Source of the DNA: Candidatus Bathyarchaeota archaeon
Lineage (GTDB): Archaea; Thermoproteota; Bathyarchaeia; TCS64
DNA length: 64,000 nt
NCBI GenBank assembly: GCA_963769425.1
Contig: CAVYLP010000003.1
Location: 29,852-93,851 of the forward strand
Direction of reading: 5' to 3'
Part shown: positions 1-58,559 of the stretch, one piece after another
Position numbering within the stretch: the first letter of the stretch is position 1
Layout of the letters: the number at the start of each line of letters is the position of its first letter
Notes under the pieces: model-generated
What the model was told of the DNA's origin: nothing
The model's database searches: none
Seen by the model: the letters and a program-made list of their open reading frames with translations, nothing else
Translations under genes and position numbers: made by a program

Positions 1-7
1 TGAAGCA

Positions 8-1732: not shown

Positions 1733-1885
1733 GCATATAAAAATTTTTTAAATATTCTAATTTTAAATTTTAAAAACAGTTATAAAAAATATAACATCAT
1801 AAATAAAAATAAAAATATGCTTTTAAGTAGAATAATAAGAAAGTTTAAGACCCAATTCCCTAAGTAATGACTAAATGAATATATA

Positions 1886-3118: not shown

Positions 3119-3167
3119 TAACGATTGATTAAGAATTTCAATTCCGGCACATAAAGTACAATAGTGT

Positions 3168-4253
3168 TCAACTACTAATGGTTTTGAATTTGTTCTGTAA
3201 CGCTGGATCTTCCTTTATTTGAACCAAGCTTTCCGGATAATAGCTAATAAACCATACCAAGAAAGATGTCACATCAATTTTATCATTCAATAAATGATTT
3301 CTCTTGACACGCCAATCTTGTTTGACACCATTCTCAGATATCAACATTGTAGCGTATTTCAAAGCCTCAGAAGGATTCGAAAAACTATGCAAAAGATCAT
3401 ACTTTTTCTCAAGTTCCAACAGATTACCCATTGTATTCGATAGCGATGAAACGTATACCGAAGGAGTGCCCAATAAGGCGGCTTCAGTCGCCATCGAAGC
3501 CCCCTCCCCCACATAAAGCGATGCATAATACAGTAAATCATGGATATACACTGGATGAATTGTTAATTTGAATTTTTCAATATCGTTTGGCAATTGCCCT
3601 TCGGCACTCACAAAAACTTTTCCATACTTCGATAATTCTTCAATAAATGCCATTTTATCAAGAATTCCTGTTTGACGAACATCATGTGTGGCGGTCCAAG
3701 CACTGAATCGGATAATTGTGAACTTATCCTCAATCTTAAGGCTAAGCATATCAAGAACAGCTGGATTTGGTGAAAACCATCTTGGGTGAAGATAAACTAT
3801 TTTTTGATCCCCTTGATACCTGATTTGTTTTGAACCTAAATTTAGCTTATAGTTATCAGGGGTAAAAATGACGCTCGTGAAGGGTGCGTACAATCTATAC
3901 TGTTCTCTCGAGTGCTCCGTATCTTCAAAAGTAATCGATGGTTTTTTTAATAGCCAGGCTACATGTGCTGCACGAACCTATCCAAGACCGATGAAAATAT
4001 CTGGCTTAAAATCCAATGCGGCTTTATACAGTTTTAAATCCATCAAAGGCATGTTCAATAATTTCTTAGTAATAGAATCGCCGTAATTACCAAAGTTGAT
4101 ATAATTAACACCATAGCAATCCAATAACTCAAAAACAATAGGTCTACCTGACGCTATAACTAATACTTTATTACCTAATCGCTCCATTTCACGGATAAAA
4201 TATTTGAAAAAGTGAACATGAGCAGGATGATTAATATCCGTAATGATATTCAA
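3168..4253 (-). pseudogene. DUF354-like protein (a predicted glycosyltransferase/epimerase-like family) interrupted by an in-frame TAG
   Basis: ORFs 3978..4253 and 3168..3893 are in the same frame on the minus strand. Translation reads ...IFIGLG * VRAAHVAWLLKKPSITFEDTEHSREQYRL-YAPF... through a TAG at 3978-3980. The C-terminal ORF starts at TTG. Confidence 0.55.
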
Positions 4254-4299
4254 TACACTCTAATATTATAGAATTGTTTTCTAAATATCAATTGAATGG

Positions 4300-5295
4300 T
4301 TATATTTGAGCCTCGATTCCCTTATACTTCAATTGCAAAATATTTTTAAAACAATCGAAAATTGGTTTTCTAATAAATTTATAATATTTTCCATAATTTA
4401 CCAAATTTCCACCAAATCTTCTCTTAAACTCACGGGGCCCGTAAGGCCTTTGAGGATTTCCCGCCCCTCCAAAGTCAAAAAATTTATATCCATTTTTACT
4501 GCCAATTTCTAAACCTAACCATACCATTAATTCATTTGAATATTCAGAAACGTCATTATACAAAGATCCAGCATACCAATCATACATTACATCCTTATAG
4601 GTCAGAAATATTCTTGTAACTATAGGCTCATCATTTTTATATCCAATTTTTCCTATTATTTGTCCCTTAAGATACTTAAAAGCATTGATAAAAACTATCT
4701 TGTTTGGATTAGGCATATTTACTCTTTTATAAGTATTACAAATAAGACGATACGATTCATCGATATTTTTTTGAGTTTTAATATCGGAAATCACGATATT
4801 TTTACTTAATGCTTTTTTAATATTTTTTCTTCTATTTTTAGGAATTGAATCCCATGTTATTTTTGAATCTAGATTTAGTGGTATTTCATAATTCAAGTGA
4901 TCCTCATAATAATAACTTATTTTTGAAAGAGCATTTTTAATGCTGCTTGTATCCCACATATTTTTAATATCTATCATAGAAGAAGGTATAATTTTTGGAT
5001 TTAATTCATCGATGTAGGATAATAGCATCGACGCATACATCGATTCATCGATAATTGGTCCCCCCTGAAAAGATAATCTTGAAAATAAATTATAATAATT
5101 TGTTAAATTCCCAACCATTAACCCCTTTATATTGTTATTATTTAATATAGTCAAACCCACTGATTTATTATAATTATCAATATTATTTACTTTATAATAC
5201 TCAGGCGTTTGAAATATATTGCCAAATTTATTAGTTAAAACATACTCTTTCCATTGTTTTTCATTAACTTTATCTATATTCATAATTTGTAGCAT
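4300..5295 (-). CDS. FemAB-like acyltransferase (FemABX / DUF482-like GNAT-fold family)
   Basis: C-terminal FDFGGAGNPQRPYGPREFKRRFGG motif characteristic of the FemAB family. 331 aa. Confidence 0.6.
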   Translation of the reverse strand: MLQIMNIDKVNEKQWKEYVLTNKFGNIFQTPEYYKVNNIDNYNKSVGLTILNNNNIKGLMVGNLTNYYNLFSRLSFQGGPIIDESMYASMLLSYIDELNPKIIPSSMIDIKNMWDTSSIKNALSKISYYYEDHLNYEIPLNLDSKITWDSIPKNRRKNIKKALSKNIVISDIKTQKNIDESYRLICNTYKRVNMPNPNKIVFINAFKYLKGQIIGKIGYKNDEPIVTRIFLTYKDVMYDWYAGSLYNDVSEYSNELMVWLGLEIGSKNGYKFFDFGGAGNPQRPYGPREFKRRFGGNLVNYGKYYKFIRKPIFDCFKNILQLKYKGIEAQI

Positions 5296-5298
5296 AAG

Positions 5299-6063
5299 TT
5301 ACCCTCCTCTAAAAATACGTATAGCCAATTTACCCGAGTTAAACAAATTATCTAAACACCAACTTATTACAAATTCAGAATAATTCGTTGCCCATCTTTC
5401 AGGGTGAATATTTAAATATAATTTAGAAAAGGACTTTGTGGAAATTACTTTTATTAAATCATTTGTATTTCTTATTTTAATCGAATTTATATCAGTTTTA
5501 ATGTAGTCCCTTAAATTGTTTTTATTATCCCAGCTACGTCCAGCATCCGTATAATAATCTATATCAGAAATAGATAGACTACCATCGCCAAGCAAATTAA
5601 AATCTTCAAACTTTACATTTTCCCAAATAGAGCTGCTCACATATCTCGACAAGGGCCGCCCATGCATGCTAATCGTATTAACATAGCATATTTTTCTAAA
5701 TTCTTCGAGCTCTTTCTTAAAAACATTAATGGCTTCAAATTGGTCACCATTTGTCTTGCAGAGCGTCTCATAATGATAGCCAATCTCATGCCCCATAACC
5801 GAAATTGATCGAATAATATCCTTATCAAAAACTCCAGAAGAATATCTAAAATAATATGTCGCTGAAATTCCTAAATTGTATTCCAGTTCAGCCATTTTTA
5901 AGGCATTCTTGGGCTTTCGGTCAACATCATGTCTTAAAATTATAAATCCATCCACCGGATGAGATTTTAAATATTCTTCTACGGTAATGAATCTATATCT
6001 AGAAATAATATTACACAGTTCTTTATACTTAGCTAATGTAAAATCAAGAGTCATATAGCTCAC
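5299..6063 (-). CDS. Polysaccharide deacetylase-like protein (carbohydrate esterase 4 superfamily-like)
   Basis: RHDVDRKP motif and His-rich metal-site residues (HEIGYHYE). It is separated by only 3 nt from the upstream FemAB-like gene. Confidence 0.5.
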   Translation of the reverse strand: MSYMTLDFTLAKYKELCNIISRYRFITVEEYLKSHPVDGFIILRHDVDRKPKNALKMAELEYNLGISATYYFRYSSGVFDKDIIRSISVMGHEIGYHYETLCKTNGDQFEAINVFKKELEEFRKICYVNTISMHGRPLSRYVSSSIWENVKFEDFNLLGDGSLSISDIDYYTDAGRSWDNKNNLRDYIKTDINSIKIRNTNDLIKVISTKSFSKLYLNIHPERWATNYSEFVISWCLDNLFNSGKLAIRIFRGG

Positions 6064-6204
6064 ATCGTAATGAATTAACGATCATAATTCTATTATTAAA
6101 TAGTATGCAATTTATTAAGAGTACGTTTCGCCGTTATTACAATGATTGCCAACCTAAATAAGAAAACAGTATTACTTTGAAGAACTCGTGCTAACTAATG
6201 AGTA

Positions 6205-7203
6205 TTAAAAAAATCGCCTTTTAAGGAGCCTCAAATACACTGACTCTGCGAATTTACCCCGTATATTCTGTTTCCTAACGGTATAAAAAGCGGTAAGTTT
6301 CGGTCCAAATTTTGATTTATATGTGGCAATTCCTTCTTTGTTAGCGCCTACAAAATCTATTTTTAGGATGCCTTCCTGCTTACATTTTTTTATGTTTTCC
6401 CAAGTGAGCAACTCATTTACAGGTATTTTTCCTTCAGGTCTTACGCTTCCAAGCCAATCCATGTAAGTATCATTGTGCCATAGAACAACTTCAGATCCGA
6501 CTATATCCTCGCCATTTTTTACTAAGTGGATGCATATATTATCTGGAAATAGTGCCCTAAGTTCGTTTAAATAATCTTTACTATATAATGGAATTGTTAA
6601 TCCTTGTTCAATATATCTCTTTGAAATCATACCAAATACAAGATCACTTTTATCAGTTTCAACTATTTTTATATTCAATTCTTCCGCTTTTCTTATTTTA
6701 GAACGTTTCTTAATATTAATACCCTTCCAAATTGTATCTATATCGGAAGATAAGTCTAGGATATATGTATAGTTAACATTCACATCATATCCACCCCAAA
6801 TTAACTGTCTAGTATCAATAATATCAGGCATGAACGAAATAAATATGTAATCGGGGTTTAATTGTTCTAATGTTTTAGAGAAATCATCATAAATAATCTT
6901 GAGATATTCTTCCTGTTTCTCTTGGTTAAAATCATAAAATGTGTCTTTAAGGGCATATCCAAGATAGGGTATACTAGCTCTCGGCGGTGGTGAGAATAAC
7001 ATCTTAACGGAATATTGTTGTTTATAGAAAACAGGGAATAAGCAAAACAGTTCATCGGTCTTAAAAAAACCGTAGGTTAACAAATCGAATCCAGAGTATT
7101 TAGCCGTTGTTTTAAGAAAATCCCAACGATGAAATATTGTTGAGTGACTGCAATCCTTAATGAATTTATCCCAGACCTGCGGGTCATCAATTATTTTTAT
7201 CAA
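6205..7203 (-). CDS. FemAB-like acyltransferase, paralog of 4300..5295
   Basis: C-terminal ...GILKIDFVGANKEGIATYKSKFGPKL resembles the FemAB signature. Size is similar (332 aa). Confidence 0.55.
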   Translation of the reverse strand: MIKIIDDPQVWDKFIKDCSHSTIFHRWDFLKTTAKYSGFDLLTYGFFKTDELFCLFPVFYKQQYSVKMLFSPPPRASIPYLGYALKDTFYDFNQEKQEEYLKIIYDDFSKTLEQLNPDYIFISFMPDIIDTRQLIWGGYDVNVNYTYILDLSSDIDTIWKGINIKKRSKIRKAEELNIKIVETDKSDLVFGMISKRYIEQGLTIPLYSKDYLNELRALFPDNICIHLVKNGEDIVGSEVVLWHNDTYMDWLGSVRPEGKIPVNELLTWENIKKCKQEGILKIDFVGANKEGIATYKSKFGPKLTAFYTVRKQNIRGKFAESVYLRLLKRRFF

Positions 7204-7291
7204 AAGGCCAGTCCTCGGACTCTATCTAACAGCTCAAAGATAAATTGATTATTATTAACCATATATATTATTCTTAACTTAATTATGTACA

Positions 7292-8332
7292 ATGAATTAC
7301 GACATATTGAAATCAAGTGATAAAATTTGGGACATCTACACGGTAAAAAATGATTATCAAATTAATGAAACTAATAATAATTTAAAACGCAACTCTGAAA
7401 TAATAAAAAATCCTCTGGCCTCAGAATATCTATTTAAAAATGAAAAGGTGCCCGAATATCCAAATGGGGAGGGATTTGCTTTATGTCTTACACACGACGT
7501 CGATGAAATTTACTTTCCATGGAGCCATTTACTACAAGCCATAATTTATTACGCCAAAAAAATGAATACGCATGGAATAATAAATTCCTTCCATTGGAAA
7601 TTTCGTAAAAAAGAGAGTCCATATCTAGATTTTAAAAAGATACTCGATCTTGAGAAAACATACAATGTTAGATCCACATTCTTTTTCCTAGCAACTGAAA
7701 AAGATCCCATCAGATTTCGATATGTCATTGAAGACGCAACGGAAATCATCAAAGATATTCAATCAGAAGGATTCGAAATAGGACTTCACGGTGGATACTA
7801 TGCTTACAATAATCTTGAGGACATCATTCAACAAAAAATTAGACTCGAAAGAGTTTCTAACAGCCAAGTAATTGGTTACAGGAATCATTATCTAAATTTT
7901 AACGTCCCTCAGACATGGTATTATCTGACAAAAGCGGGATTTACATATGATTCAACCATCGGATACAACACAAATAACGGATTCAGAAATGGCATGTGCC
8001 ACCCATACAAACCATATGATCGGAATATTAATAATTATATAAATATTATTGAAATTCCCCCAATTATCATGGACTCTGCATTTCCAAAAGGCACACTAGT
8101 AACTAATTGGTGGGAATTAAAGAAGATGTTAAAAGTTGTCGAGAAAAATCACGGGGTTCTCACCGTTAATTTCCACAACGAAGTGTTTCACGCCCCCTAC
8201 AAAGCAGACTTCATGAAGCTGTACGTGCATCTCCTGGAGGAAGGGAGAAGAAGAAAGGCTTGGATGACAAATGCCTCCGAGATACATGACTGGTGGAGAA
8301 AAAAATATATCGAGGAAGATATTATCACATAA
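7292..8332 (+). CDS. Polysaccharide deacetylase-like protein, paralog of 5299..6063
   Basis: LTHDVDE motif near the N-terminus and GLHGGYY His motif. 346 aa. Confidence 0.5.
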   Translation: MNYDILKSSDKIWDIYTVKNDYQINETNNNLKRNSEIIKNPLASEYLFKNEKVPEYPNGEGFALCLTHDVDEIYFPWSHLLQAIIYYAKKMNTHGIINSFHWKFRKKESPYLDFKKILDLEKTYNVRSTFFFLATEKDPIRFRYVIEDATEIIKDIQSEGFEIGLHGGYYAYNNLEDIIQQKIRLERVSNSQVIGYRNHYLNFNVPQTWYYLTKAGFTYDSTIGYNTNNGFRNGMCHPYKPYDRNINNYINIIEIPPIIMDSAFPKGTLVTNWWELKKMLKVVEKNHGVLTVNFHNEVFHAPYKADFMKLYVHLLEEGRRRKAWMTNASEIHDWWRKKYIEEDIIT

Positions 8333-20169: not shown

Positions 20170-20279
20170 TTGGTGCCGGGAATGGGAATTGAACCCATGG
20201 TCTCTATCCGGCTAAGGCACTGGTGCCTATAACCTCTGGATCATGAGTCCAGCGCATTAGCCAAGCTATGCTACCCCGG
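20170..20279 (-). tRNA. tRNA-Met/Ile2 (anticodon CAT) with an approximately 31-nt intron at a non-canonical position (variable-loop / T-arm junction). CCA is genome-encoded.
   Basis: Minus-strand read GCCGGGG-TA-GCAT-AGCTTGGCTA-ATGC-G-CTGGA-CTCATGA-TCCAG-[AGGTT...GAGACC insert]-ATGGG-TTCAATT-CCCAT-TCCCGGC-A-CCA. The acceptor, D, anticodon and T stems all pair. The extra 31 nt contains a GGCAC-CA-GTGCC hairpin. Confidence 0.6.
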
Positions 20280-20319
20280 CCCTTCTGACCCATACACACT
20301 GCACAAATTTAAATCCTGA

Positions 20320-25260: not shown

Positions 25261-25813
25261 GGATTCATCTTACATGATTGTTTATACAGTTTGCCATGAT
25301 CTCATCTTTGATGAGGAGGTTGTATTGAAAAATGCCAACAAACTTTCAACGAAAATTATTGCGCGGTTGTGGGTAAATGTTGGTTGTCTTTATGAGTAAA
25401 ATCGCGTCTCGCGCACGCCCCGCTACCATTAGCTAACCCCTCAATCTCAGAGAGAGTACTCAAAGCGTTACGGAGTATCAGGATCCTTAACAAGAACTCT
25501 CAGTTGACATATGCCAAGCATCTCAGAAGGCTGGCTAAAGGAGTAAACCTTGATTCTTCCGAGAGGTTTGCACTAATCTTTCATCTGAGCAAACATGGGC
25601 TAAGACCCGATGAAATCAGTAAGATAAAACTCAGTTTTTAATGGGGATAGAGGTGAGCTTTCGGTTAGAACATCAAAGCTTGGTCTTGAATGGACGCTGA
25701 GATTGAAAAGAGAATCTAGCGATTTATTTAGAGATCAACTTGCCTTGATCCAGATGCATTTCTTCTTTGAATTAGTTATTGGGTTAGAGGTTTTTGCGAC
25801 AGCGTGGCACTGT

Positions 25814-27331
25814 TTAATTTCCGATTATTCCATCAATCGCTTCCTCGAGATCGCCCGCGGCCTTCTCTAGTTTTCTCCTCTTCTCCATGATGTATACTGA
25901 GTCTTCCTCGATCTTTCTCTGGCTGAGGCCAATCTCTTCTAGGACTCTCACTGGGGCAGGACCACCGATGAGTGTTCGTCGATACACCATCTTCCGTGGA
26001 TCCATAGCCTCCTGAATGATTTGGGTCGATAGCCCCAGATTCCTTCCATAGTCGGGATACATCGTTGCAGCTTCGTCAAGATTCTCCTCCGTGACCTGGC
26101 TGGGTTTCACTCCACGTTCGACACCTACCCTGACAAGTGTCGCGACTATCTGATGGGCGGTCCTCCACGATAATCCCTTCTCGCGCACAACGGCTGCGGC
26201 GAGGTCAGACGCCCCCGCCCAGTGGGCACCAGCTAACTCTTCAGCGCGGGAGGAATCTATCTTCAGGGTGCTTAAAATTCCAGGGATCATTCTCAGCCCA
26301 TTGTTGATGTCGGTCCAGGATCTGTGCATCCCATCGACGGAGTCTGCTCCCAGCATCCTTGACTTGACGTTGACTGTCAGGTCAGCTAAGAATCTGAGGG
26401 CCGTGGGATTTCTCTTCTGCGGCATTATGCTGCTTGTTCCGCAGTACCTGTCGGCTGGGTCGACAAGTCCGAACTCGTTCGAGCTAAAGATGAGCATGTC
26501 GTAGAACAGACCGCTGATAACGTGGCTCAGAGTGAGGAGGACGGCGAAGCTGTCCAGTGTGTACCACTCGTGTTTCTCGGCGTCGTAGCAGTTCCTGTAC
26601 AGCGCGTCGAAGCCTAGGAGGTCCATGGTGCGATGTCGGTCGAATCCAGGGATGTCGGTTCCCGTGCCAATCGCCGAGCCCGCGGGGCTGATCTGGGACA
26701 GATCGTAGGCGGCCTCAAGTTTTCTCTGCTCCCTTTCGAGCTGATTGAGGAAGGCCATCGCGTAGAACCCGAGCGTCATAGGCTGAGCATGCTGGAGGAT
26801 GTAGCTTGAGCCATAGACTGTCAGCCCTGGAGAGTACATCGGCCAGATGGTTTCCACGTGTTTCTCCGCAAAGTCAGCTAAGGCCATCCTAACGGTGGTG
26901 AGCAACTCCATGGCTTCGAGGATGTATTCGCGCTGTGTGATGTGTTGGCTCACCGTGGCGAGGTCTCCAGTACTTCTCCCGATGTGGATTCGACCTCCGA
27001 CCTCCCAGCCAAGCTTCTCAATCAGGTAGGATTCACCCGAGTGGTCAACTCCGCCAACTCTGACGCGTTCCGCCAAAACACCCTCCGCCTCCATCTCCCT
27101 GAAGGCTCTGAGGATCGCCGCTCCGTCGCCCTTCGGAATTATGCCCTGTTCGGTGAGCATAACGGTGTGGGCCTTGTCGAACATGTGGTAGGCGAGGTAG
27201 GGTGGGGTCTTCTCCCACCCCTTTTCCGCTCTCTGGAACTCAGGCGCCATCGGCTCTGTGAGGCGGCCGACTCCGGGCCTCATCGCGAACCATAGGTGAC
27301 CTCTGTACCTGTACTCCTCTTTCTTCTCCAA
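25814..27331 (-). CDS. argH: Argininosuccinate lyase
   Basis: Fumarate-lyase signature GTSSIMPQKRNP. Overall layout matches ArgH. Confidence 0.85.
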   Translation of the reverse strand: MEKKEEYRYRGHLWFAMRPGVGRLTEPMAPEFQRAEKGWEKTPPYLAYHMFDKAHTVMLTEQGIIPKGDGAAILRAFREMEAEGVLAERVRVGGVDHSGESYLIEKLGWEVGGRIHIGRSTGDLATVSQHITQREYILEAMELLTTVRMALADFAEKHVETIWPMYSPGLTVYGSSYILQHAQPMTLGFYAMAFLNQLEREQRKLEAAYDLSQISPAGSAIGTGTDIPGFDRHRTMDLLGFDALYRNCYDAEKHEWYTLDSFAVLLTLSHVISGLFYDMLIFSSNEFGLVDPADRYCGTSSIMPQKRNPTALRFLADLTVNVKSRMLGADSVDGMHRSWTDINNGLRMIPGILSTLKIDSSRAEELAGAHWAGASDLAAAVVREKGLSWRTAHQIVATLVRVGVERGVKPSQVTEENLDEAATMYPDYGRNLGLSTQIIQEAMDPRKMVYRRTLIGGPAPVRVLEEIGLSQRKIEEDSVYIMEKRRKLEKAAGDLEEAIDGIIGN

Positions 27332-27455
27332 GTTTATCGATGATAGAGCTACTGTGCGCCTACATAGTACCTATCATTGGCCGAGGAGATCGACAGTTGT
27401 GCATGGAGAGTTATGTAAGAAATGATGCGAGTGCGCAACTCATGTGACTAAAGAT

Positions 27456-29219
27456 TTAGTCCAGGTTCAGCTGGGCGAGCCAAGTTGCCTCACCCAGAGC
27501 GTCTGAAACCCGGTTAGCCTCACGGACAAGCTTCGTCTTCAAGGCTTTGAAGCTGCTAGTATCGGGGTTTAACTTCACAAGTTCGGAGAGCGGATGCAGC
27601 ACAGGTATTGGCTTGATGTATTCGGCGCCATAATGGTCCTGCCCGTATGGTCCGCTGAGGGTGTAGTTGATTGGGTTGATGACTCTGCAGATCTTCAACA
27701 TCGTAGCGTTTGTTGATTTTGCTCTCGTCTCATCATCCTCGTGAGAATTTTCGGAGGCCCTGTTTAGTTCCTCTGTTCTTAAGTCGAACGTGACTGCAGC
27801 CTCCTTGAAGCCCTTGGCTTTCTCACTTAGCCCTGAGAGGTCTAGTGCGTCGCCTGAGATCTTCTCGAGCTCATCGAGGGCTGTGAGTGTCCAGTCCGCA
27901 ACTGGGGTAAATCTGTATGGCAGTAATGGCAGAGTGCAGAGCCTCAGAATGACAAGGAGGTGAGCCTTGTTAGCCATGTAGAGGGTCTCAGGGTCGCATT
28001 TCTCGATGGTGTCGTATTCGCTGTGGTACCACCAACCACCAGGTTTCTGCTCCTCTCCGTTAGGTGTCACAGTCAAGACCCTTGTGGATGGCACCCCGAC
28101 CCCGAGGTAGGACTGGTCACCGGCTTTCCACGGTGTGTAGCCAGCGATTCTCCTGTAATCAGCTCCCTCGTATTCGGCTAGATCCTTGATCGTCTGGTCC
28201 ATGAAGTCGTGGCAAACGGGGTCCGAGTCGACGGTGTATACCGTTGTCCCAATCATGCACGGCGTATCGTCGTTTAGGTATGCGACACAGTGTTGCTTCA
28301 CTCTATCCCAGTTGTTGTCCAGGTAGTATGTTGATCCAGTCATGATGCCGGTCTCGTGCCCCTGGAAGAAGAGGAACTCCGCTCCTCTTCTCATCGGTTT
28401 AAGACTTGATAGAACCCTCGCGACTTCGAGAGTGCACGCGACCCCGACGGCGTTGCAGCTACCAGCCGCGGCCCAGGCATCCATGTGGCTGCCGAGTAGG
28501 ACATAGTCCTCCTCCTCCCCCTGAATAGATGCCGTGGGCTGTCTTGTTCTAGCCCAGCCCCTTTCATTGCGGCCACGCATAAAGACCCTCACGGGCCCGC
28601 TCTGAAGGAGCTGCTTGAGCTCGTTTCCATCCTCATAGTTGATGAGAAAGGCTGGGATTCTCCCGATCTCGTCGATGTTCTCCGGGGTAGGGTTACCCCA
28701 CACGGACTTGACTGTGCCCCTGTTTAAGACCCTGCGGGGGGCATGGTAACTGATGACGATCAGACCTGCAGCACCCTTCAACACGCCCGCTACGTAGTTC
28801 TTCCAGGGCCTAGCTGGTCCGAGTTCGAACTCTGCCAGAACAATCTTGTCCTTGACGTTCTTATCTTTGTAGTCTTCGAGGCCGCCTCCGGCGACGTAGA
28901 CTAATTCTCCCTCGACCCCTTCTGAACCGGTGGAAGCCATCTGTGCGAGAGGCATCGCATCTATGGACCTCTTTTTTGGCGCCGTGACTCGGAGTTCGGC
29001 TTCAGTAAGCTTGGGGAAGTCGAGCCAGCTCTGATACTCAACTGCTTTCGCCTGAACATGGTACCCTTTCAGGACGTTCAGTACGTATTCGACGGCTCTC
29101 TCGTTTTCCGGAGTTCCCGAAAGCTTCTGTCCTGATTCCGCGAACCATTTGGTGTGTTCCCAGCTCTTCTCCCTTGAGACTCGGTTAAGTGCCTCCTTTT
29201 CATAGTCCGTTAGAACCAT
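27456..29219 (-). CDS. M28-family metallopeptidase-like protein with a PA/TfR-like apical region (587 aa)
   Basis: LLGSHMDAW, DDTPCM and EFLFFQGHETG segments are compatible with an M28 dinuclear zinc site. No signal peptide was recognised. The call is tentative. Confidence 0.4.
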   Translation of the reverse strand: MVLTDYEKEALNRVSREKSWEHTKWFAESGQKLSGTPENERAVEYVLNVLKGYHVQAKAVEYQSWLDFPKLTEAELRVTAPKKRSIDAMPLAQMASTGSEGVEGELVYVAGGGLEDYKDKNVKDKIVLAEFELGPARPWKNYVAGVLKGAAGLIVISYHAPRRVLNRGTVKSVWGNPTPENIDEIGRIPAFLINYEDGNELKQLLQSGPVRVFMRGRNERGWARTRQPTASIQGEEEDYVLLGSHMDAWAAAGSCNAVGVACTLEVARVLSSLKPMRRGAEFLFFQGHETGIMTGSTYYLDNNWDRVKQHCVAYLNDDTPCMIGTTVYTVDSDPVCHDFMDQTIKDLAEYEGADYRRIAGYTPWKAGDQSYLGVGVPSTRVLTVTPNGEEQKPGGWWYHSEYDTIEKCDPETLYMANKAHLLVILRLCTLPLLPYRFTPVADWTLTALDELEKISGDALDLSGLSEKAKGFKEAAVTFDLRTEELNRASENSHEDDETRAKSTNATMLKICRVINPINYTLSGPYGQDHYGAEYIKPIPVLHPLSELVKLNPDTSSFKALKTKLVREANRVSDALGEATWLAQLNLD

Positions 29220-29529
29220 ATGTGGAGATTCGTAGTCTGCGGATATTTCAGTTGCGCGCGAATGACTCTCTTATTTTTAATAAAAGTGTCAAGTCAGACT
29301 CGCAAGTGAAAACGTTAGTATGGGGCTTCCCCCCGCTACTTTTAATAAATTTATGAATATTATCCAGTTCAACTACACATTCAGAACTCGAATATGCAGA
29401 AGAGGAGAAAAATCTCGCATCCTGTCGCGCACGCGTAAGGATTATGGGGTTGCGTATATTATGTGCTGGTCATCCTCGCACGCTTGCCGTCTCATACACT
29501 TTTTAAAATTCAATTCTCAATACAGAATC

Positions 29530-32129: not shown

Positions 32130-32498
32130 ACTACGCCTACGCACATAGAAGCTAAGATAAAATCATTATTTCAAGAACATTATAGACTACTTAAATGCTT
32201 ATCTCATTTTTCGAACTTGCCTTTAGCTCAAAAAAACAATCAAACATACCGCCAGAAAATTAACCCAAAAGAACAATTACAAAACAACCAAAACCCATCA
32301 AAAAAAAAACGACCATGACATAAAACACAAAAAAACCCTAAAAACACATACAAACACACTTTAACAACCACTTTTTAACAAAAACAAGTGAATTGTGATG
32401 AAAGAGATCTCTTTCCCCGCTACCACGTACTACCCCCTCAACGTTCGCGTGTATAATAAGATAAATAAGGGTTATTTGCATTCTTTTTTTGACCTTGT

Positions 32499-39076: not shown

Positions 39077-39320
39077 TTTAAGTCAGATTAATCGATATTT
39101 GTGATACATATTAATAACTTTCCATTAAAACTTATTTCATTTGAGGAAAAATTTAGTATTTTTTAGTCAATTAAGTAATATTCACGACTGATTAACTGGA
39201 TGAAATACTATTTTTATCAATTATGTCATATTTTAAAACACTAATACTTACTTATTATTTAACTTAATAACCATCAATTTTCTAACTTACTGCCGGGAAG
39301 AGAATGATATGAATAAGTTA

Positions 39321-46781: not shown

Positions 46782-49017
<2,236 letters not shown>

Positions 49018-51962: not shown

Positions 51963-54635
51963 CTACTTTTTCTTCTCGGCGAGCGCCTTCTTGACCCTCG
52001 CGGGGGTCGCGGGGAGGTCGTATATCCTCGCGTCGCAGGCGTTGTAGATGGCGTTCGTCACTGCGGGTGCCGTCGAGGTCATCGTCATTTCGCCGATCCC
52101 CGTCGTCTTGAGCGGCCCTATCGAGCGGGGCGTCTCCCTGACGAGGTTGACCATCTCGAAGCTGTCCCGGATCATGGGGAACTTGAAAGTGACGTAGTCG
52201 ACGCTCTTGCCGTGGACGTACTCCTCCCTCAGAGCGTAGCCGACGCCCTGATCCATACCTCCCTCTAGCTGCCCTTCGAAGGCCAGGGGGTTGATGACGG
52301 GGCCGGCGTCTATCGCTGACGTGATCCTCAGGACGCGTGTCTCTCCGGTCTCGGTGTTGACCTCGACCTCGCAGAGCTGTATGTTGTGGCACTCCGTCGC
52401 GTAGTTAGGCCCCTGTCCCGTCTTGGGGTCGAACTTGTCAGGCCCCTCGGCCGCGAAGTTGCCCTCGTAGCGCGTCGGCTTGCCCGCCTTCTTCATGCCT
52501 GCGTAGGTCTTCGTCTTCGCCTCGGCCATAGCCTTCTTGAGCTTGTCGCAGGCGTCTGCGAGGGCGTTCCCGGCGAGGAACGTCATGCGGCTGCCCCATG
52601 AGCCGCCTGCGCTCACAGTCTTATCCGTGTCACGTGTGTAGAGGCGCACCTTCTCCAGGGGTAAGCCTAGCCTTTCGGCCGCGATCTGAGTGAGCATGGC
52701 GTCGTTCCCCTCCCCCGGGTCCGCGACGGCAGCGTAGATCGTTACGCCGTCATCGGAGTCAAGCTCGATATAGAGCTTAGCCGCGTCCCCGAAGTCTCCT
52801 ATGCCGAACGAATCAGCTGCAAGGCCGACGCCGCGCCTCAGCTTGCCACCCTTCGCGTTGAACGCCTCCGCCTCCTTAACAGCCTTCTCGTAGGCGGGCT
52901 TCACGGCGTCGCATAGCTCGGGGAATGGCCAGTCGACCGCCACTGGGCCGGTGGACTTCGACTGCCCCGGCTTCAGCGAGTTCATTCTACGAATCTCAAG
53001 TGGGTCTATGCCGAGTTTCTCAGCGATCATGTCAACGGCGGACTCGATTGCGAACATCGTTTCCGGCGGACCCGCTCCTCGGGCTGCACCACCTCCGGCG
53101 TTGTTGGTGTAAACGAGTCTACCGAAAGCCTCGATGTTGGGTATGTGGTAGGACCCCTGTAGCATCATCAGCGAGCGATCTAGGCTCGAGCCGGGTCCGC
53201 CCAACATGTAGGCGCCCTTGTTAATCGTGAAGTCGTAGTAGAGCGCCGTGAAGTGACCACCCTTGTCCGCCGCCATCTTCAGCTTCGCCGAATATGGGTG
53301 CCTCTTCGATGTAGTCTGCATCGACTCCGTCATACTCGGCTGATACTTGATTGGGCGCTTGAAGTGGAGCGCAGCGGCAGCAGTGACAGCCTCCGTCGTG
53401 ACCCTCGCCTTGATGCCGAACTGACCGCCTACGAAGGGCTCCTTATAGCGGACGTTGTCCCAGCCGACCGCCTCCTTGATCTCGGCAGTATGGTTGTGGA
53501 TAGCGATGCTGCGCCCGATCACGACGAGCTGGTCGCCATCGAGGTAGGCGACGCAGTTTTCGGGTTCAAGCGGTGCCTGGTGGTTCATCTGCGTCTCGAA
53601 GTCGTGTTCGACGACGACCGCAGCCTTGGCGAACGCCTCATTCGCGTCTCCCTTTATGAGGGGCTGCGAGTAGCAGAGGTTCGGCGAGTGGCTGTGTAGC
53701 TGGTAGGCTCCGGGTGCGAGCGCCTCCTGAGGAGTCATCATGACGGGGAGAGGCTCGTACTCGACCTTGACAGCGGCCGCCGCGGCCCTTGCCTGCTCGC
53801 GGGTCTCCGCTGCGACGCCGATGATCGGGTCACCAAGACACCTCACCACGTCCTCGCATAGCACAGGCCTATCTGGCCAGTACTCCCTGATCCTGTTCGT
53901 TCCCTTGATGTCGTCGGCCGTCATGACGCCGAACACTCCCGGCATCTTCAGCGCCGCCTTCGTGTCGACGGACTTGATCTTAGCGTGGTACTGGATGCTG
54001 TGCACCAGCGCTAGGTGGAGTGGTTTGTCGAGCTTTATGTCGGCGGAGAACTCGGCGAGGCCACAGGCCTTCAGCATCGATGTGGGCCGGGGATGGAATG
54101 TGCCCATCATCCCTCCCTTGAGACCGCGTCGGACCTCCGCGGGGGTCGTCTCCTTTCGGATGAACTGGCCCGAGAGCTTCACGGCCTCAATGATCTTCTT
54201 GTACCCTGTGCACCGACACATGTTGCCCGCCAGCGCCCTCTTTATCGCCGGGAGGTCCGGGTTGGGGTTCTGATCGAGAAGGACCTTCGTCGCTATTATC
54301 ATGCCCGGCGTACAGAAGCCGCACTGTATCGCGTCGGTCAAGACGAACGCCTCCTGGATCAGGTGAGGCTTCTCAGGCGTGCCCAGACCCTCAATCGTGG
54401 TCACGGACGCGTCGTCAAGGTCGGCAACCTTCTGCAGGCAGGAACGCACCGCCTTGCCGTTCACTATCACGGTGCACGCTCCACACTGACCCTTCCGATC
54501 ACATGACTGCTTCGTGCCAGTCAGACCGAGGTCCTCGCGTAGCAGGTCGATTAGGGCCCTGTTGGGCTCCACCGTGAACTCACGCTTGACTCCGTTGATA
54601 TTTATAGAAACTTCCTTCGTCGTAGTCGGCGACAT
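51963..54635 (-). CDS. Molybdopterin-dependent aldehyde oxidoreductase (xanthine-oxidase family, Mop type). It has N-terminal 2x[2Fe-2S] domains fused to the Mo-cofactor domain and no FAD domain.
   Basis: N-terminal CDRKGQCGACTV...C and GFCTPGM...CRCTGY ferredoxin motifs, then a large MoCo-binding domain. 890 aa. Confidence 0.8.
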   Translation of the reverse strand: MSPTTTKEVSININGVKREFTVEPNRALIDLLREDLGLTGTKQSCDRKGQCGACTVIVNGKAVRSCLQKVADLDDASVTTIEGLGTPEKPHLIQEAFVLTDAIQCGFCTPGMIIATKVLLDQNPNPDLPAIKRALAGNMCRCTGYKKIIEAVKLSGQFIRKETTPAEVRRGLKGGMMGTFHPRPTSMLKACGLAEFSADIKLDKPLHLALVHSIQYHAKIKSVDTKAALKMPGVFGVMTADDIKGTNRIREYWPDRPVLCEDVVRCLGDPIIGVAAETREQARAAAAAVKVEYEPLPVMMTPQEALAPGAYQLHSHSPNLCYSQPLIKGDANEAFAKAAVVVEHDFETQMNHQAPLEPENCVAYLDGDQLVVIGRSIAIHNHTAEIKEAVGWDNVRYKEPFVGGQFGIKARVTTEAVTAAAALHFKRPIKYQPSMTESMQTTSKRHPYSAKLKMAADKGGHFTALYYDFTINKGAYMLGGPGSSLDRSLMMLQGSYHIPNIEAFGRLVYTNNAGGGAARGAGPPETMFAIESAVDMIAEKLGIDPLEIRRMNSLKPGQSKSTGPVAVDWPFPELCDAVKPAYEKAVKEAEAFNAKGGKLRRGVGLAADSFGIGDFGDAAKLYIELDSDDGVTIYAAVADPGEGNDAMLTQIAAERLGLPLEKVRLYTRDTDKTVSAGGSWGSRMTFLAGNALADACDKLKKAMAEAKTKTYAGMKKAGKPTRYEGNFAAEGPDKFDPKTGQGPNYATECHNIQLCEVEVNTETGETRVLRITSAIDAGPVINPLAFEGQLEGGMDQGVGYALREEYVHGKSVDYVTFKFPMIRDSFEMVNLVRETPRSIGPLKTTGIGEMTMTSTAPAVTNAIYNACDARIYDLPATPARVKKALAEKKK

Positions 54636-54873: not shown

Positions 54874-56373
54874 ATGATTCTAGAGTCGATATGTATACTC
54901 GTTCATTTTATAAGACGCTGTAATCTTCCTAATTGCGTGAGAAGTTTGAAAATTGTGTCAGTCTCAATCGCATCCATTGCGATTCTATTCACGATAGTCC
55001 TAGCATTTTCAGCGACTAATGTAGTCCACGCCATCGGGGTAAACGCCACTATAAATGGTGGACCCACCCCCATGGGAATAGTATATGACTCCGGCAAGAA
55101 CCTAATCATCACAGCCAACTACAAACTCGATCCAACCAACCCAAACTCCGCAAACAGAATCTCATTGATAAACGACACCACTAACAGACTCATCGGGTCG
55201 ATCGCCATACCCTTTATACAAACAACAGGTGCTAGAGGAGCCTTCCCAGTCGACCTAGCCTATGCACCGGACCAAAACTTGACATTCGTATCCTGCGGAG
55301 CCGGCACGGTAGCAGTGGTGGCGGATAAGGATGGCCACATAGTCGCAAACGTTGCAGTGGGGATTTCTCCAACTGGCATAGCCTACGACTCCGGCAAGAA
55401 AGAGGTCTATGTAGTCAACACATATGACGGAACCGTCTCGGTCATTGACGTCAACTATAAGGTGATCGCAACCATACCCGTGGGAAAAAGCCCCACCCGC
55501 GTAGCCTATGACTCAGGTTTAGGCGAGGTATTCGTGACCAACGAGGAATCTAGCACGGTCTCTGTCATTTCGGATAGCAAACATGAGGTTGTTGCAACCA
55601 TAACCGTTGACGCCGGCGCCACAAACTTCGGCCCCACAGGCGTCGCCTACGACTCCGGCCAACACAAGGTCTACGTCGCCAACCCCCACTATAACACTGT
55701 CTCCGTCATATCCGACGACGCGGATAACAAGGTCAAGACCACGATCAACAACATATCTGGCGCGAGTGCTGTGGCTTACGATTCTGGCAAGGGCCAGATA
55801 TGGGTGCTCACACAGGGTGGCGTCACCGTAATATCAGACAGCAATGATCAGGTAATTGCCAGTGTGGGTATCGCATCTGGGCTTTATGGTATAGCCTATG
55901 ACTCAGGTAAGGGCGAGATATTCGTCACCAGCACTAATGATGGCACGGTCTACATGATTTCAGATTCATTCAGTACCCCAACGCCGACGCAGACAACAGG
56001 CACCCTAATAGTCAATGTAAAGGACTCCAACGGAGGTGTCCTCTCGGGAGTAACTGTATCGTCGACGAGCCAGCCCTCAGGTCAAAGTGGGTTGAGTGGG
56101 ACAACCGGCTCTGATGGGTCGGTGACTATTAGCAATGTGGCTACAGGGGCATACACGTTACAGGCATCGAAAAGTGGATACGTGACTGGGACTGGTTCAG
56201 GAAGTGTTGCGGCTGGCTCATCTGCAACCGTTAGCATTACCCTTCAGACTCAACAATCGGGCGGAGGAGGTGGAGGGGGCGGGGGTGTGCCAGGTTTCCC
56301 GGTTGAAGCTACTGTACTGGGTATAATTCTCGTTGTGGTTGTGTTGTCCGCCCGAAAACGCTTATCCGTTTAA
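54874..56373 (+). CDS. Surface protein with YVTN-type beta-propeller repeats and a PGF-CTERM archaeosortase sorting signal
   Basis: About 7 repeats of ...YDSGK..V(Y/F)V.N...TVSVI... A Thr/Ser/Gly-rich linker follows, then GGGGGGGGVPGFPVEATVLGIILVVVVLSARKR at the C-terminus. Confidence 0.65.
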   Translation: MILESICILVHFIRRCNLPNCVRSLKIVSVSIASIAILFTIVLAFSATNVVHAIGVNATINGGPTPMGIVYDSGKNLIITANYKLDPTNPNSANRISLINDTTNRLIGSIAIPFIQTTGARGAFPVDLAYAPDQNLTFVSCGAGTVAVVADKDGHIVANVAVGISPTGIAYDSGKKEVYVVNTYDGTVSVIDVNYKVIATIPVGKSPTRVAYDSGLGEVFVTNEESSTVSVISDSKHEVVATITVDAGATNFGPTGVAYDSGQHKVYVANPHYNTVSVISDDADNKVKTTINNISGASAVAYDSGKGQIWVLTQGGVTVISDSNDQVIASVGIASGLYGIAYDSGKGEIFVTSTNDGTVYMISDSFSTPTPTQTTGTLIVNVKDSNGGVLSGVTVSSTSQPSGQSGLSGTTGSDGSVTISNVATGAYTLQASKSGYVTGTGSGSVAAGSSATVSITLQTQQSGGGGGGGGGVPGFPVEATVLGIILVVVVLSARKRLSV

Positions 56374-56902
56374 TTTCCTCGATTTTTCTATAACTCTTCG
56401 GCATGACTCATTTTTTACTCCACTTGCACACACAAATAAAGTCGAAGATGATACAACGAGGATGATATTTATCGATGTGAGGTGTAACACCAATAAAATG
56501 ACGTCTGAGATGAGACAGAGGCAGATTTCCAAATTATATATCTAAGAGGTGTGACACTAATCTCATCAATTCATCGAATCTCATGCCACTTATACTCTAG
56601 CGCATTTGTTACAAGCGATGAGAGACTGAGGAAAATAGAGGATCCCGCGATCATCATAATGAAGGACTATATCTAAACAATTTTTTAAATAGAAATGAAT
56701 ATGTAAAAGCTTCGTACTAAATCAAAATGTATTTATCGAATTGTAAATGGGTTAACAACCACCATTATAACACGCAACAACCACCGTATACAGTGAAGAA
56801 TCCTGTAACGGCCACCACTTACATGCGCAACTGCTACTATTACAAAGCGCAACAGCCACCGTATACAAGGGACAGCTCCGCAACAGCCGCCACTTATAAG
56901 GA

Positions 56903-56989
56903 AGACAGAAATAGACAGAAATAGACAGAATAAGACAGGAATAGACGGAAATAGACAAAAATATACTAAAAAAGACAGAAAAAGACAGG
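56903..56989. repeat. Imperfect tandem array (about 9 copies) of a 10-bp unit AGACAGAAAT
   Basis: gaagacagaaatagacagaaatagacagaataagacaggaatagacggaaatagacaaaaatatactaaaaaagacagaaaaagacagg. Confidence 0.8.
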
Positions 56990-57135
56990 CGTCTAAGCGT
57001 TTTTATTGACCTGAATCGGTAAAGGGGCTTGGAAACGGCTCAGATGGGTAAAGTGTTTGTGAGGAAAAACGGTATAAGTTGCAGTCGTTGCGGTATAAGT
57101 AGCCACTGTTGCGCGGAGGATGTGGATGGACTCAG

Positions 57136-57381
57136 ATGGGTTTTTCGGTGCGGATCGGAGAGGCACATAGATTAATGATCCCGATTGAATGCAGGCGAAA
57201 ACTTGACCTGAAGCCGGGGCAGATCTACGATATAACGATTGTAAGCTCGGACAGGATGGTCAAAGAAAATTTCCTTGCGAAGCTTCACTCATCTGGACAC
57301 GTCGTCATCCCGAAGCTCATCTACGAGACAAGAAAGTTCGCCAAAGGTCAGCTTCTAACCGTCTACGTCAGTACAGATTAA
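57136..57381 (+). CDS. AbrB/MazE/SpoVT-type swapped-hairpin DNA-binding protein (annotated ORF 57109..57381)
   Basis: MGFSVRIGEAHRLMIPIECRRKLDLKPGQIYDITIV has the KLDLKPGQ hairpin motif. Confidence 0.5.
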   Translation: MGFSVRIGEAHRLMIPIECRRKLDLKPGQIYDITIVSSDRMVKENFLAKLHSSGHVVIPKLIYETRKFAKGQLLTVYVSTD

Positions 57382-57402: not shown

Positions 57403-57663
57403 CTAGACCTTCCCTTTAGCCTGATCCATCGCGGCCTGGATCCCCCTACTGATCTTTCTCGGCAAAGTAGTTCTTCTCACCCACCGGCCATCCGCACTAA
57501 GCTTTTTGATTACCTCACTCAGGAGGGCTACATCAGCTCTGAGCCTGTTAACGTCACGCCTAGCCAAGACAAAGAGCATCCTCGTAGCGTCGTCCTCGAC
57601 CCCGTCCTTTAGCCAAGCATTAAGGCGCCTTCTATCAGCCTCGGTGAATATGTAACTTCTCAT
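57403..57663 (-). CDS. Small hypothetical protein (86 aa). The rest of annotated ORF 57403..57906 is a shadow of the deacetylase gene.
   Basis: Internal Met MRSYIFTEADRRRLNAWLKDG... The coding-like part ends before the overlap with 57717..58559. Confidence 0.3.
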   Translation of the reverse strand: MRSYIFTEADRRRLNAWLKDGVEDDATRMLFVLARRDVNRLRADVALLSEVIKKLSADGRWVRRTTLPRKISRGIQAAMDQAKGKV

Positions 57664-57716: not shown

Positions 57717-58559
57717 TTAATCCTTCCAGCACCGAGCCACGTCTTCGCCTCTGCAGAACCAGACCCCCTTCTGCCTCATCATGTGCTGGATGAGCCTCTC
57801 CACCATCATGATCCTGTGCGCCCTGCCGCTGATGTAGGGGTGCAGCGTTAGGACGTAGACGCCGTTCTCGACGTTGTCGTACATGTAGTCGAACTCCTGG
57901 CTCCACACCTCGAAGACGTCGCTCGGGGAGTGTAGTCCCGGGTTTAGGGGAGCCCTGCGGAACTCGAAGTGGGGGTAGTCGTCCATGTACCAGGAGATGG
58001 GGAGCTCTATGATCTTCGACTCCCTGCCGAAGACCCAGGGCTCGGAGGGGGAGCCGTGGTCACCCACCCTGCACTTGTAGGGGTTGAAATCGTCACCCAT
58101 CTGGGTGCTGTCGTAGAGGAAGCCGTGGTCCTCCATCAGCTTTATCGTGCTGTTACTGTTCGCGAAGCCGCCCGAGCGGTTACCCACGGGGTACTTGCCG
58201 GTGACCCTCTTTATCACCTCGTTCGCCTTCTCCATCAGCTCCAACTCCTTCTCGGGGCTGAGCTGAGGCGCGTCCTCGTGGCACCACATGTGGTGGGCGA
58301 TCTCGTGCCCCTTATCGAATATCTTCTTCGTGAGCTCCGGGTAGACCTCGATGGTCCACGCCGGAACGAAGAAAGTGGTCTTGAAGTTGTACTTGTCGCA
58401 GAGGTCGAGCACCCTCGGGACGCCTACACGGGCACCGAACTCGCCCTGGCTGATCAACGTGGGCGTCGTCTCGCCGCGGAGGACAAAAGCAGACATCGCG
58501 TCGAAGTCCCAACTGAGGACGACGGCGCATTTCTTACCCTTCGGTAGAACAATCGGCAT
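57717..58559 (-). CDS. Divergent polysaccharide deacetylase (PuuE/allantoinase-like CE4 family)
   Basis: N-terminal KKCAVVLSWDFDAMS and His-rich HHMWCHE segments. Confidence 0.6.
   Translation of the reverse strand: MPIVLPKGKKCAVVLSWDFDAMSAFVLRGETTPTLISQGEFGARVGVPRVLDLCDKYNFKTTFFVPAWTIEVYPELTKKIFDKGHEIAHHMWCHEDAPQLSPEKELELMEKANEVIKRVTGKYPVGNRSGGFANSNSTIKLMEDHGFLYDSTQMGDDFNPYKCRVGDHGSPSEPWVFGRESKIIELPISWYMDDYPHFEFRRAPLNPGLHSPSDVFEVWSQEFDYMYDNVENGVYVLTLHPYISGRAHRIMMVERLIQHMMRQKGVWFCRGEDVARCWKD

Follow-up and report, generated by a model that had tools for sequence, protein, structure and literature searches.

MraZ, a single-chain AbrB/SpoVT-type cradle barrel, binds three to four GTG(G/T) boxes separated by 6-nt spacers at its own promoter, with one cradle per major groove, cooperative binding and autoregulation (PMC12957436). 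PhS018 of Pyrococcus horikoshii, a small barrel related to the AbrB family, has no assigned function or DNA target and is predicted to bind DNA like AbrB family II (PMC4333400). Here, we analyzed a 64,000-nt stretch of DNA from a Candidatus Bathyarchaeota archaeon (contig CAVYLP010000003.1; hereafter the window), in which an AbrB-like gene of the PhS018 type, encoding 81 amino acids (57136-57381, + strand), is preceded by a repeat-dense, non-coding region (56750-57135). An earlier note on this DNA had proposed an iteron-containing origin, a complex operator or a phase-variable region. On the basis of the current results, we see about an even chance that the region 56750-57135 controls the AbrB-like gene from its 5' side and would serve as an MraZ-like multi-site autoregulatory operator for its product.

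The likeness to MraZ lies in the combination of a single-chain AbrB-type barrel with short direct boxes of 10-bp period that lie 5' of the barrel's own gene. The box is WGAY here and GTGG in MraZ, four to nine boxes are present instead of three to four, and the promoter is of the archaeal type, with a B recognition element (BRE) and a TATA box, whereas MraZ belongs to the bacterial dcw operon. With PhS018, the protein shares the format of an archaeal single-chain barrel of about 80-90 amino acids with a duplicated b-b-a-b arrangement. The N-domains of AbrB, Abh, SpoVT, MazE and VapB have the same looped-hinge-helix swapped-hairpin fold, and many of these proteins autoregulate; however, their barrels are built from two chains and are accompanied by C-terminal oligomerisation or toxin-binding domains, unlike the window protein.

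The tandem array (56903-56990, + strand) consists of nine AGAC boxes, one of them in the form ATAC, with A-rich 6-nt spacers. Tandem Repeats Finder (TRF) placed it at 56903-56988 with a period of 10, 8.6 copies and 80% matches, and its score of 102 was the highest of any tandem repeat in the window, which bears out the claim of the earlier note that about nine units are present. Mismatches were much rarer in boxes than in spacers (5/116 and 52/174, respectively; Fisher 2e-8, a value that is approximate because the array units share ancestry). A box that is kept while the spacer varies is the pattern of contacted boxes and not that of a decaying microsatellite. The array is also predicted to be strongly curved, with a bend of about 111-121 degrees at the 99.8-99.9th percentile of the window (by a dinucleotide wedge model implemented for this analysis). 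By the same model, it ranks second in the window, and in each of the eight relative loci tested no other 80-bp segment is more curved. The strongest predicted bend of the window lies at about 39166 (approximately 39100-39230), in AT-rich intergenic DNA between two minus-strand genes, and a second 10-bp array, A/C-rich and with 3.8 copies of AAAACACAAA, occurs at 32322-32358; both are unlike the AGAC array. Curvature as a general promoter feature was considered and rejected, as the other most-curved sites of the window are unrelated AT-rich or coding DNA.

Relatives of the locus were compared in five lineages. Contigs with these loci come from, for example, peat and permafrost samples (ENA ERZ25039502; JGI 3300044798, 3300044799 and 3300037878). 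Lineage A comprises the window and five further close haplotypes (L001, L002/L004, L003 and L014/L015, obtained through exact-protein look-ups of neighbouring genes), and the others are B (L026), C (L018/L019), D (L020/L021) and E (L022-L025), whose AbrB-like proteins are 56%, 45%, 41-43% and 47% identical to that of the window, respectively. A period-10 A-rich WGAY array was found immediately 5' of the gene in all five lineages. TRF counted 7.2 copies in L026, 6.1 in L018, 2.9 in L020 and 3.2 in L021, and in L022 the array is visible by eye, with six of nine positions in phase. Nearly all family loci adjoin a cluster of polysaccharide deacetylase, SH3 and MFS genes, in differing arrangements: the AbrB-like gene is co-directional with the deacetylase gene in lineage C and convergent with it in the other lineages, and in L018 it is inverted relative to the cluster, with the array still 5' of it. 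The upstream neighbour also differs by lineage (an NHL gene or the relic of a PIN-domain gene, a 111-amino-acid open reading frame (ORF), the deacetylase gene, a minus-strand ORF, or orf86, a gene for a small helical protein). The array thus stays fixed 5' of the gene through an inversion and several changes of neighbour, and it is therefore assigned to the control region of that gene.

Conservation extends beyond the array, which in the inter-lineage alignment is followed by an oligo-T run, a motif of the form AAAG-GRGCY...GAAACGGCTCnGATGG, GAAAAAC and a T/A-rich octamer. In the window, the oligo-T run (T5, 57000-57004, + strand) comes directly after the array, and T4-T5 is aligned at this place in all five lineages; its role may be that of an archaeal termination signal, or it may simply belong to the A/T-rich bend. 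The conserved motif AAAGGGGCTTGGAAACGGCTCAGATGG, with the core GAAACGGCTCnGATGG, is unique and lies at 57021-57047 (+ strand). At 57064-57079 (+ strand), BRE-like GAAAAAC and then TATA-like GGTATAAGT form a putative core promoter on the basis of the established archaeal BRE/TATA consensus. GAAAAAC, GAAAGAC or GAAAAAT followed by a T/A-rich octamer could be aligned in all five lineages, and the succession of GAAACGGCTCnGATGG and a BRE/TATA-like element is common to three of the four other lineages. Local alignment of 56990-57070 gave z scores of 13.7 (B), 7.3 (C) and 6.1 (D) against 1000 dinucleotide shuffles, none of which reached the observed score. At 41-56% protein identity neutral DNA would be unalignable, so the aligned segment is conserved. 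Thus, of the three proposals in the earlier note the complex operator is favoured, in that the array and the segment that follows it travel with the gene through five lineages; that the AbrB-like protein binds there is the part that we infer.

The end of the array lies about 110-135 nt before the start codon. A Shine-Dalgarno-like GGAGG (57115-57119, + strand) is located 6 nt before ATG 57126, which is the start in relatives, with in-frame ATGGACTCAGATGG(G/T)TTTTCGG. In the window, one extra base (GGG+TTTTT) shifts this ATG out of the reading frame, so that translation would begin at ATG 57136 or TTG 57109; the extra base reflects either a true change of start or a sequencing error in the homopolymer. 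An upstream ATG within a conserved GATGG motif was rejected as a start, as it is not ATG in lineages B and E.

A second set of repeats lies upstream of the array. Six direct units of about 21 nt (u1-u6, 56752-56900, + strand; consensus GCAAC-A-RCC-RCC-(N1-3)-TAYA) were parsed by hand and with a regular expression. They start at 56752, 56774, 56805, 56827, 56849 and 56880, with spacings of 22, 31, 22, 22 and 31 nt, and are placed on roughly one helical face (phases 0-2.5 bp). The earlier note had counted four or five such units; their presence, far above chance, was confirmed and their number raised to six. Three units are exact GCAACARCCRCC, which has zero further exact matches in the window, and 6 of the 10 window matches to the degenerate core G[CT]AAC.[AG]C.[AG]C fall within 376 bp, against 0.02 expected (Poisson 2e-13). 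A repeat finder also recognized a 75-nt super-repeat that occurs twice (56754-56821 and 56829-56896; 68 nt aligned, 72% identity). Two more units, u8 (57071-57091) and u7 (57092-57112), lie in inverted orientation (57071-57112, - strand), across the TATA-like element and the site where transcription is expected to start; these promoter-proximal 21-mers repeat the entire upstream unit in the opposite orientation (81-85% over 20-21 nt). Both smaller features that the earlier note had reported near the gene were recovered, namely two copies of GGTATAAGT (57071-57079 and 57092-57100), both of which fall within a 21-nt direct repeat that the repeat finder placed at 57070-57111, and an inverted pair, GCGCAACAG (56847-56855) and CTGTTGCGC (57106-57114), which are 100% complementary. 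Its positions for the elements were exact or within 1-3 nt.

The arrangement of six plus two units is constant in all lineage-A haplotypes, and GCAAC units are confined to lineages A and B, lineages C, D and E being without them. The units of lineage B (L026) take the related form GCAACAGCCACAG; three of them, within 130 bp, are perfect 17-bp GCAAC-N7-GTTGC palindromes, and one inverted unit (CTATAAGCTGCGGCTGTTGCGC) directly precedes the ATG. In both lineages the inverted units overlap the BRE/TATA-like element. The earlier note had proposed a genome search for the motifs; across the window and about 150 kb of related loci, no recurrence of either motif away from its own site was seen, and a genome-wide regulon was rejected on this basis. 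A coding reading of the units was also considered. In one frame, every unit yields the heptad GCA ACA GCC ACC GTA TAC AAG (ATATVYK), and many differences between units looked synonymous before counting; however, the changes were distributed 8/15/17 over codon positions 1/2/3 (P = 0.14; eight units in four haplotypes), successive units stand in different frames (spacings of 1 mod 3) and L002 carries an extra base, and this reading was rejected.

The AbrB-type identity of the gene product, as given in the earlier note, held for the curated family model and the fold and failed at the Pfam cutoff. The window protein passes TIGR01439 (AbrB family domain) marginally (28.5 bits; cutoff 28.3), with higher scores for P0001 (32.8 bits) and for P0009, the L018 orthologue (35.9 bits, with two matched stretches, one in each half), whereas the match to Pfam AbrB/MazE (PF04014, MazE_antitoxin) stayed below cutoff (19 versus 24.7 bits). 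In a profile search of the PDB, the best match was 2GLW, the structure of PhS018 (E 0.0044, residues 6-78), followed by the N-domains of AbrB, SpoVT and Abh (E 0.06-0.5). An AlphaFold2 single-sequence model of moderate confidence (pLDDT 72.1, pTM 0.61) contains strand-strand-helix-strand twice, and Foldseek returned 2GLW as the only match at E<=0.001 (E 1e-4, TM-score 0.75/0.70), the next matches being double-psi barrels; sequence identity to PhS018 is 24%. The motif G-x-x-x-IP...(K/R)...G is present in both halves of the protein, and BLASTP within the family gave secondary half-against-half alignments. A score above the cutoff of a curated family model and a swapped-hairpin/cradle-loop barrel fold place the protein in the AbrB/SpoVT/MazE superfamily, and the presence of both barrel halves in one chain of about 80-90 amino acids, through internal duplication, makes it PhS018-type. 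As modelled, it is a single-chain swapped-hairpin AbrB-type barrel in which two AbrB halves are fused.

The family is very small. Eleven matches were found by phmmer among 1.84 billion representatives, the clear full-length homologues amounting to a handful of proteins of about 80-96 amino acids, and a profile search of a 5.8e9 collection gave 12 matches. Nothing was found in a protein scan of genome contigs and a first metagenome scan, and no family relative in viral contigs (IMG/VR), where a 14-nt motif had 120 matches, 0 of them with an upstream array, as expected by chance.

We propose a mechanism in which the ancient core of the element would comprise, from 5' to 3', four to nine 10-bp-phased WGAY boxes with A-rich spacers that form a curved stretch of 60-90 bp, the oligo-T run, the GAAACGGCTCnGATGG motif and the BRE/TATA-like promoter. 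The gene product may bind with one barrel per box and one box per helical turn, with the bound barrels lined up on one face of the pre-bent DNA, and would in this way control its own promoter, most simply by repression. The number of boxes drifts by whole 10-bp units between strains. The GCAAC units may descend from GCAAC-N7-GTTGC palindromes and would represent a second set of sites added in two lineages (A and B). With six of them upstream of the array and two inverted over the TATA box and the expected start, occupancy of the latter could block initiation, and the bend between the two site sets could bring them together. A bolder version, which we offer tentatively and with considerable doubt, is that the PhS018-type barrel polymerises, one per turn, along up to nine pre-bent WGAY boxes in front of its own gene, the box number, which would drift by slippage between strains, setting the strength of the feedback. 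Apart from this, the repeat region is best seen as an ordinary regulatory region and not a new class of element.

Several observations weigh against autoregulation of the MraZ kind. First, about 75 nt separate the end of the array from the putative TATA box downstream of it, whereas the boxes of MraZ are located at the promoter or transcription start. Second, MraZ has about 150 amino acids with extra helices and forms rings from octamers to dodecamers; the 81-amino-acid protein has two short helices, without a counterpart of the MraZ oligomerisation helices, and no match to the MraZ family of Pfam (E<=0.01). Third, a 4-nt box carries little specificity, and the GCAAC units, being absent from three of the five lineages, are not essential to regulation in the family. 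In lineage E, local alignment detected no significant similarity to the segment 56990-57070, and the predicted curvature depends on our implementation of the wedge model and its parameters. Finally, the repeat region is 79-87% identical among the close haplotypes, compared with 79-91% at third codon positions of the AbrB-like gene and orf86; the deacetylase gene is 98-99% identical among the same haplotypes. Thus, no evidence of overall purifying selection on the repeat region was obtained at this range, and near-neutral divergence over short distances means that constraint is visible only for the boxes and over longer distances.

It is also conceivable that the real binder is the product of orf86 or an unlinked factor. 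Orf86 (57403-57663, - strand; 86 amino acids) is convergent with the AbrB-like gene and a conserved neighbour of it; a homologue sits next to the PhS018-like gene in convergent orientation in lineages A and B and immediately 5' of it, in the same orientation, in lineage E, and none stands beside it in L018 and L020. In L006, orf86 occurs alone next to the deacetylase gene. Its product is modelled as small and all-helical (pLDDT 69.5), with no Pfam or NCBIfam match and no fold match below E = 1, and it was discarded as a recognisable DNA binder. An explanation by a generic curved upstream element, or by the target of another binder such as the orf86 product, an Lrp-type factor, a histone or Alba, appears unlikely to us, though it deserves real weight. 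Conservation is clearer for the curvature than for any extended sequence motif, three lineages share orf86 as a neighbour, palindromes of the GCAAC-N7-GTTGC kind are classic targets of symmetric dimers from many families, and the near-neutral divergence at close range would fit as well. This explanation does not account for the conservation of the AGAC/WGAY box relative to its spacer, nor for the uniqueness of the array within the window, whose other strongly curved sites are unrelated AT-rich DNA. As to orf86 itself, the array accompanies the PhS018-like gene even where orf86 is missing (L018 and L020), and a DNA-binding fold could not be recognised in its product.

The position of the locus raises the question of whether the repeats are a non-functional minisatellite or mobile-region debris, produced by slippage and duplication beside a decaying PIN gene and kept by inertia. 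The earlier note had given the spacer as 430 bp; according to the ORF list, the non-coding spacer is 762 nt long (56374-57135), and its left part is a decayed segment. A 318-bp stretch (56435-56752) that contains the PIN relic is shared by the window and L003, 142 unrelated nt take its place in L001 and L002, and in L014/L015 the PIN gene is intact, with phage-like genes beyond it. The relic itself (56512-56676), of which 56551-56676 (+ strand) represents the 3' end of a VapC-like PIN-domain gene, is a neighbour outside the control region, in this variable left flank; over its last 26 codons it shares 96% identity with the C-terminal end of the 108-amino-acid PIN gene (PF01850) that occupies this place in L014/L015. 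A weak orf86-like fragment (56441-56512, E 0.002) precedes it, which hints at a decayed orf86-like/PIN gene pair at 56435-56752. On the other side, synteny with other Bathyarchaeia species (L005, L007, L008, L012 and L013) ends at 57717, the stop codon of the deacetylase gene, and neither the AbrB-like gene nor the repeats were found at the corresponding site in these five. Beyond 57717, L005 continues into window positions 25807-29333 and L007 into 46783-48963. The locus therefore forms the edge of a rearranged, variable region. With the locus exactly at the synteny break, three contexts of the left flank including the PIN relic, a variable copy number of the array and a divergence among haplotypes similar to that of synonymous sites, inert debris may seem an attractive view; nevertheless, we hold it to be improbable. 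The array, GAAACGGCTCnGATGG and the BRE/TATA-like element persist at 41-56% protein identity with different flanks, and the number of GCAAC units (6+2) is constant in the lineage-A haplotypes. This inter-lineage conservation already largely refutes the view of a minisatellite.

Nucleotide divergence between strains jumps at 57717: it is 1-2% in the deacetylase gene and 5-20% across the repeats, the AbrB-like gene and orf86. It should be noted that in L003 (859-6129) a 97% copy of window 56432-57298 is joined mid-gene to unrelated high-GC DNA that encodes a MerR-DEAD helicase. L003 is probably a chimeric assembly; less likely, it is a true recombinant in which foreign sequence follows the first 54 codons of the AbrB-like gene.

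Two further explanations were judged, to an equal degree, hardly probable. According to the first, the repeats act as RNA, in the form of a small RNA, a long structured leader or a type III toxin-antitoxin-like RNA that ends at the oligo-T run. The T4-T5 conserved after the array in all lineages and the promoter-like AT-rich DNA at 56680-56692, upstream of the GCAAC units, could be read in this way, and the succession of repeats, T-run and small gene loosely recalls toxI-toxN. However, no Rfam match was found even at E<=10, the folding energies of the two strands do not differ from those of shuffled sequence (z +0.11 and -0.18), and the fold derived from the alignment is one 4-bp hairpin with no compensatory change. 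Moreover, the units are of 10 nt (or 21-31 nt), compared with about 34-36 nt in known type III antitoxin repeats, and the protein is an AbrB-type barrel and not an endoribonuclease.

The second takes phase or rheostat variation as the main point of the array, with gain and loss of 10-bp units tuning expression of the gene between cells. The number of AGAC boxes is indeed 9 in the window, L003 and L014, 8 in L002 and L015, and 7 in L001. The one-unit difference between L014 and L015 sits at a perfect AGACGAAAAT duplication, although identity between the two is 99.4% over 3.2 kb. To this extent the phase-variable region of the earlier note found support. On the other hand, the units are degenerate (80% matches), which means that slippage is slow, and the changes are whole helical turns, by which the helix face is preserved. 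The array neither separates promoter elements nor falls within an ORF but is placed 5' of the putative promoter, and the differences are between assemblies of different samples and not within one population.

Two described kinds of repeat region recall parts of the present arrangement. ParR-parC of R1 and the heptads of the omega repressor of pSM19035 have 7-11-bp repeats, direct and inverted, upstream of the binder's gene, and binding is cooperative and wraps or bends the DNA; these systems are plasmid-borne, with binders of the ribbon-helix-helix type and a partner NTPase, whereas no ParA/ParM-like gene is present among the approximately 50 window ORFs scanned. As in an archaeal oriC, repeats of opposite orientation flank an A+T-rich stretch; unlike there, no orc1/cdc6 gene is found nearby, the module is not shared between species and most family members lack it, and the GCAAC units are unlike the consensus of the origin recognition box (judged without a scan for it). 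A replication origin (archaeal, with such boxes, or of the plasmid iteron type) or the partition centromere of an integrated element, the first proposal of the earlier note, is thus very improbable even though its opposite repeats enclose a curved stretch of about 70% A+T at the border of a variable region, for no Orc1/Cdc6, MCM, Rep, ParA or integrase domain was found among the ~50 ORFs across the window, nor a Cdc6/Orc/AAA initiator domain among the L001 genes, sister species lack the module although they have kept the flanking genes, unlike what would be seen for a chromosomal origin, the GCAAC 'iterons' are lacking in three of five lineages, viral contigs (IMG/VR) hold no relative of the family, and cumulative GC skew has no turning point at 56-57 kb (the 64-kb window being short and skew weak in archaea).

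A toxin-antitoxin pair of the AbrB-like protein with the PIN gene was also rejected. In type II systems (VapBC and MazEF) the toxin is co-transcribed; here there is no such toxin, and the PIN relic lies about 460 nt upstream. The PIN gene is complete only in L014/L015 and absent from L001/L002, L018, L020, L022 and L026.

With regard to the wider surroundings, the gene to the left of the spacer encodes an NHL/CarboxypepD_reg surface protein (54874-56373). To the right of orf86 lies the polysaccharide deacetylase gene (57720-58559, - strand), followed by the SH3 and MFS genes; it is 78-96% identical to genes of nine Bathyarchaeota/Bathyarchaeia metagenome-assembled genomes. The ~50 ORFs scanned are metabolic and housekeeping genes together with a glycan island and one insertion sequence (IS). 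About 10-28 kb to the left of the repeat region are rearranged or variable between species, and the IS element, with a DDE transposase (PF01609; 22415-23251, - strand), lies inside the region that is rearranged relative to other species. Positions 1-8000 have a G+C content of 21-33%, compared with 55-63% at the other end of the window, and encode a glycosyltransferase, a DUF354 protein, FemAB/GNAT-like proteins and a second polysaccharide deacetylase; this part looks like a low-GC surface-glycan island. A 107-nt tRNA gene (20174-20280, - strand; Rfam 55.5 bits), missed by ARAGORN, presumably contains an archaeal intron, which fits an archaeon. A gene of the xanthine dehydrogenase family (51963-54635, 890 amino acids) appears as three separate ORFs in L001 (13695-16369), likely as a result of assembly frameshift errors.

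Bathyarchaeia are abundant, uncultured archaea of sediment and peat, and to our knowledge almost nothing is known of their gene regulation. PhS018-type barrels have been discussed as evolutionary links between AbrB-type and double-psi barrels. The locus pairs a protein of this type with a conserved candidate target, made up of WGAY boxes, GAAACGGCTCnGATGG and, in two lineages, GCAAC palindromes. If the bolder version of the mechanism holds, the array would be the first cognate DNA target for the PhS018-type 'evolutionary intermediate' fold, and the system would be an archaeal parallel to MraZ-type regulation, tied to a conserved deacetylase-SH3-MFS cluster in Bathyarchaeia. The pairing could thus tell whether single-chain AbrB barrels on direct-repeat arrays are an ancient and general mode of regulation.

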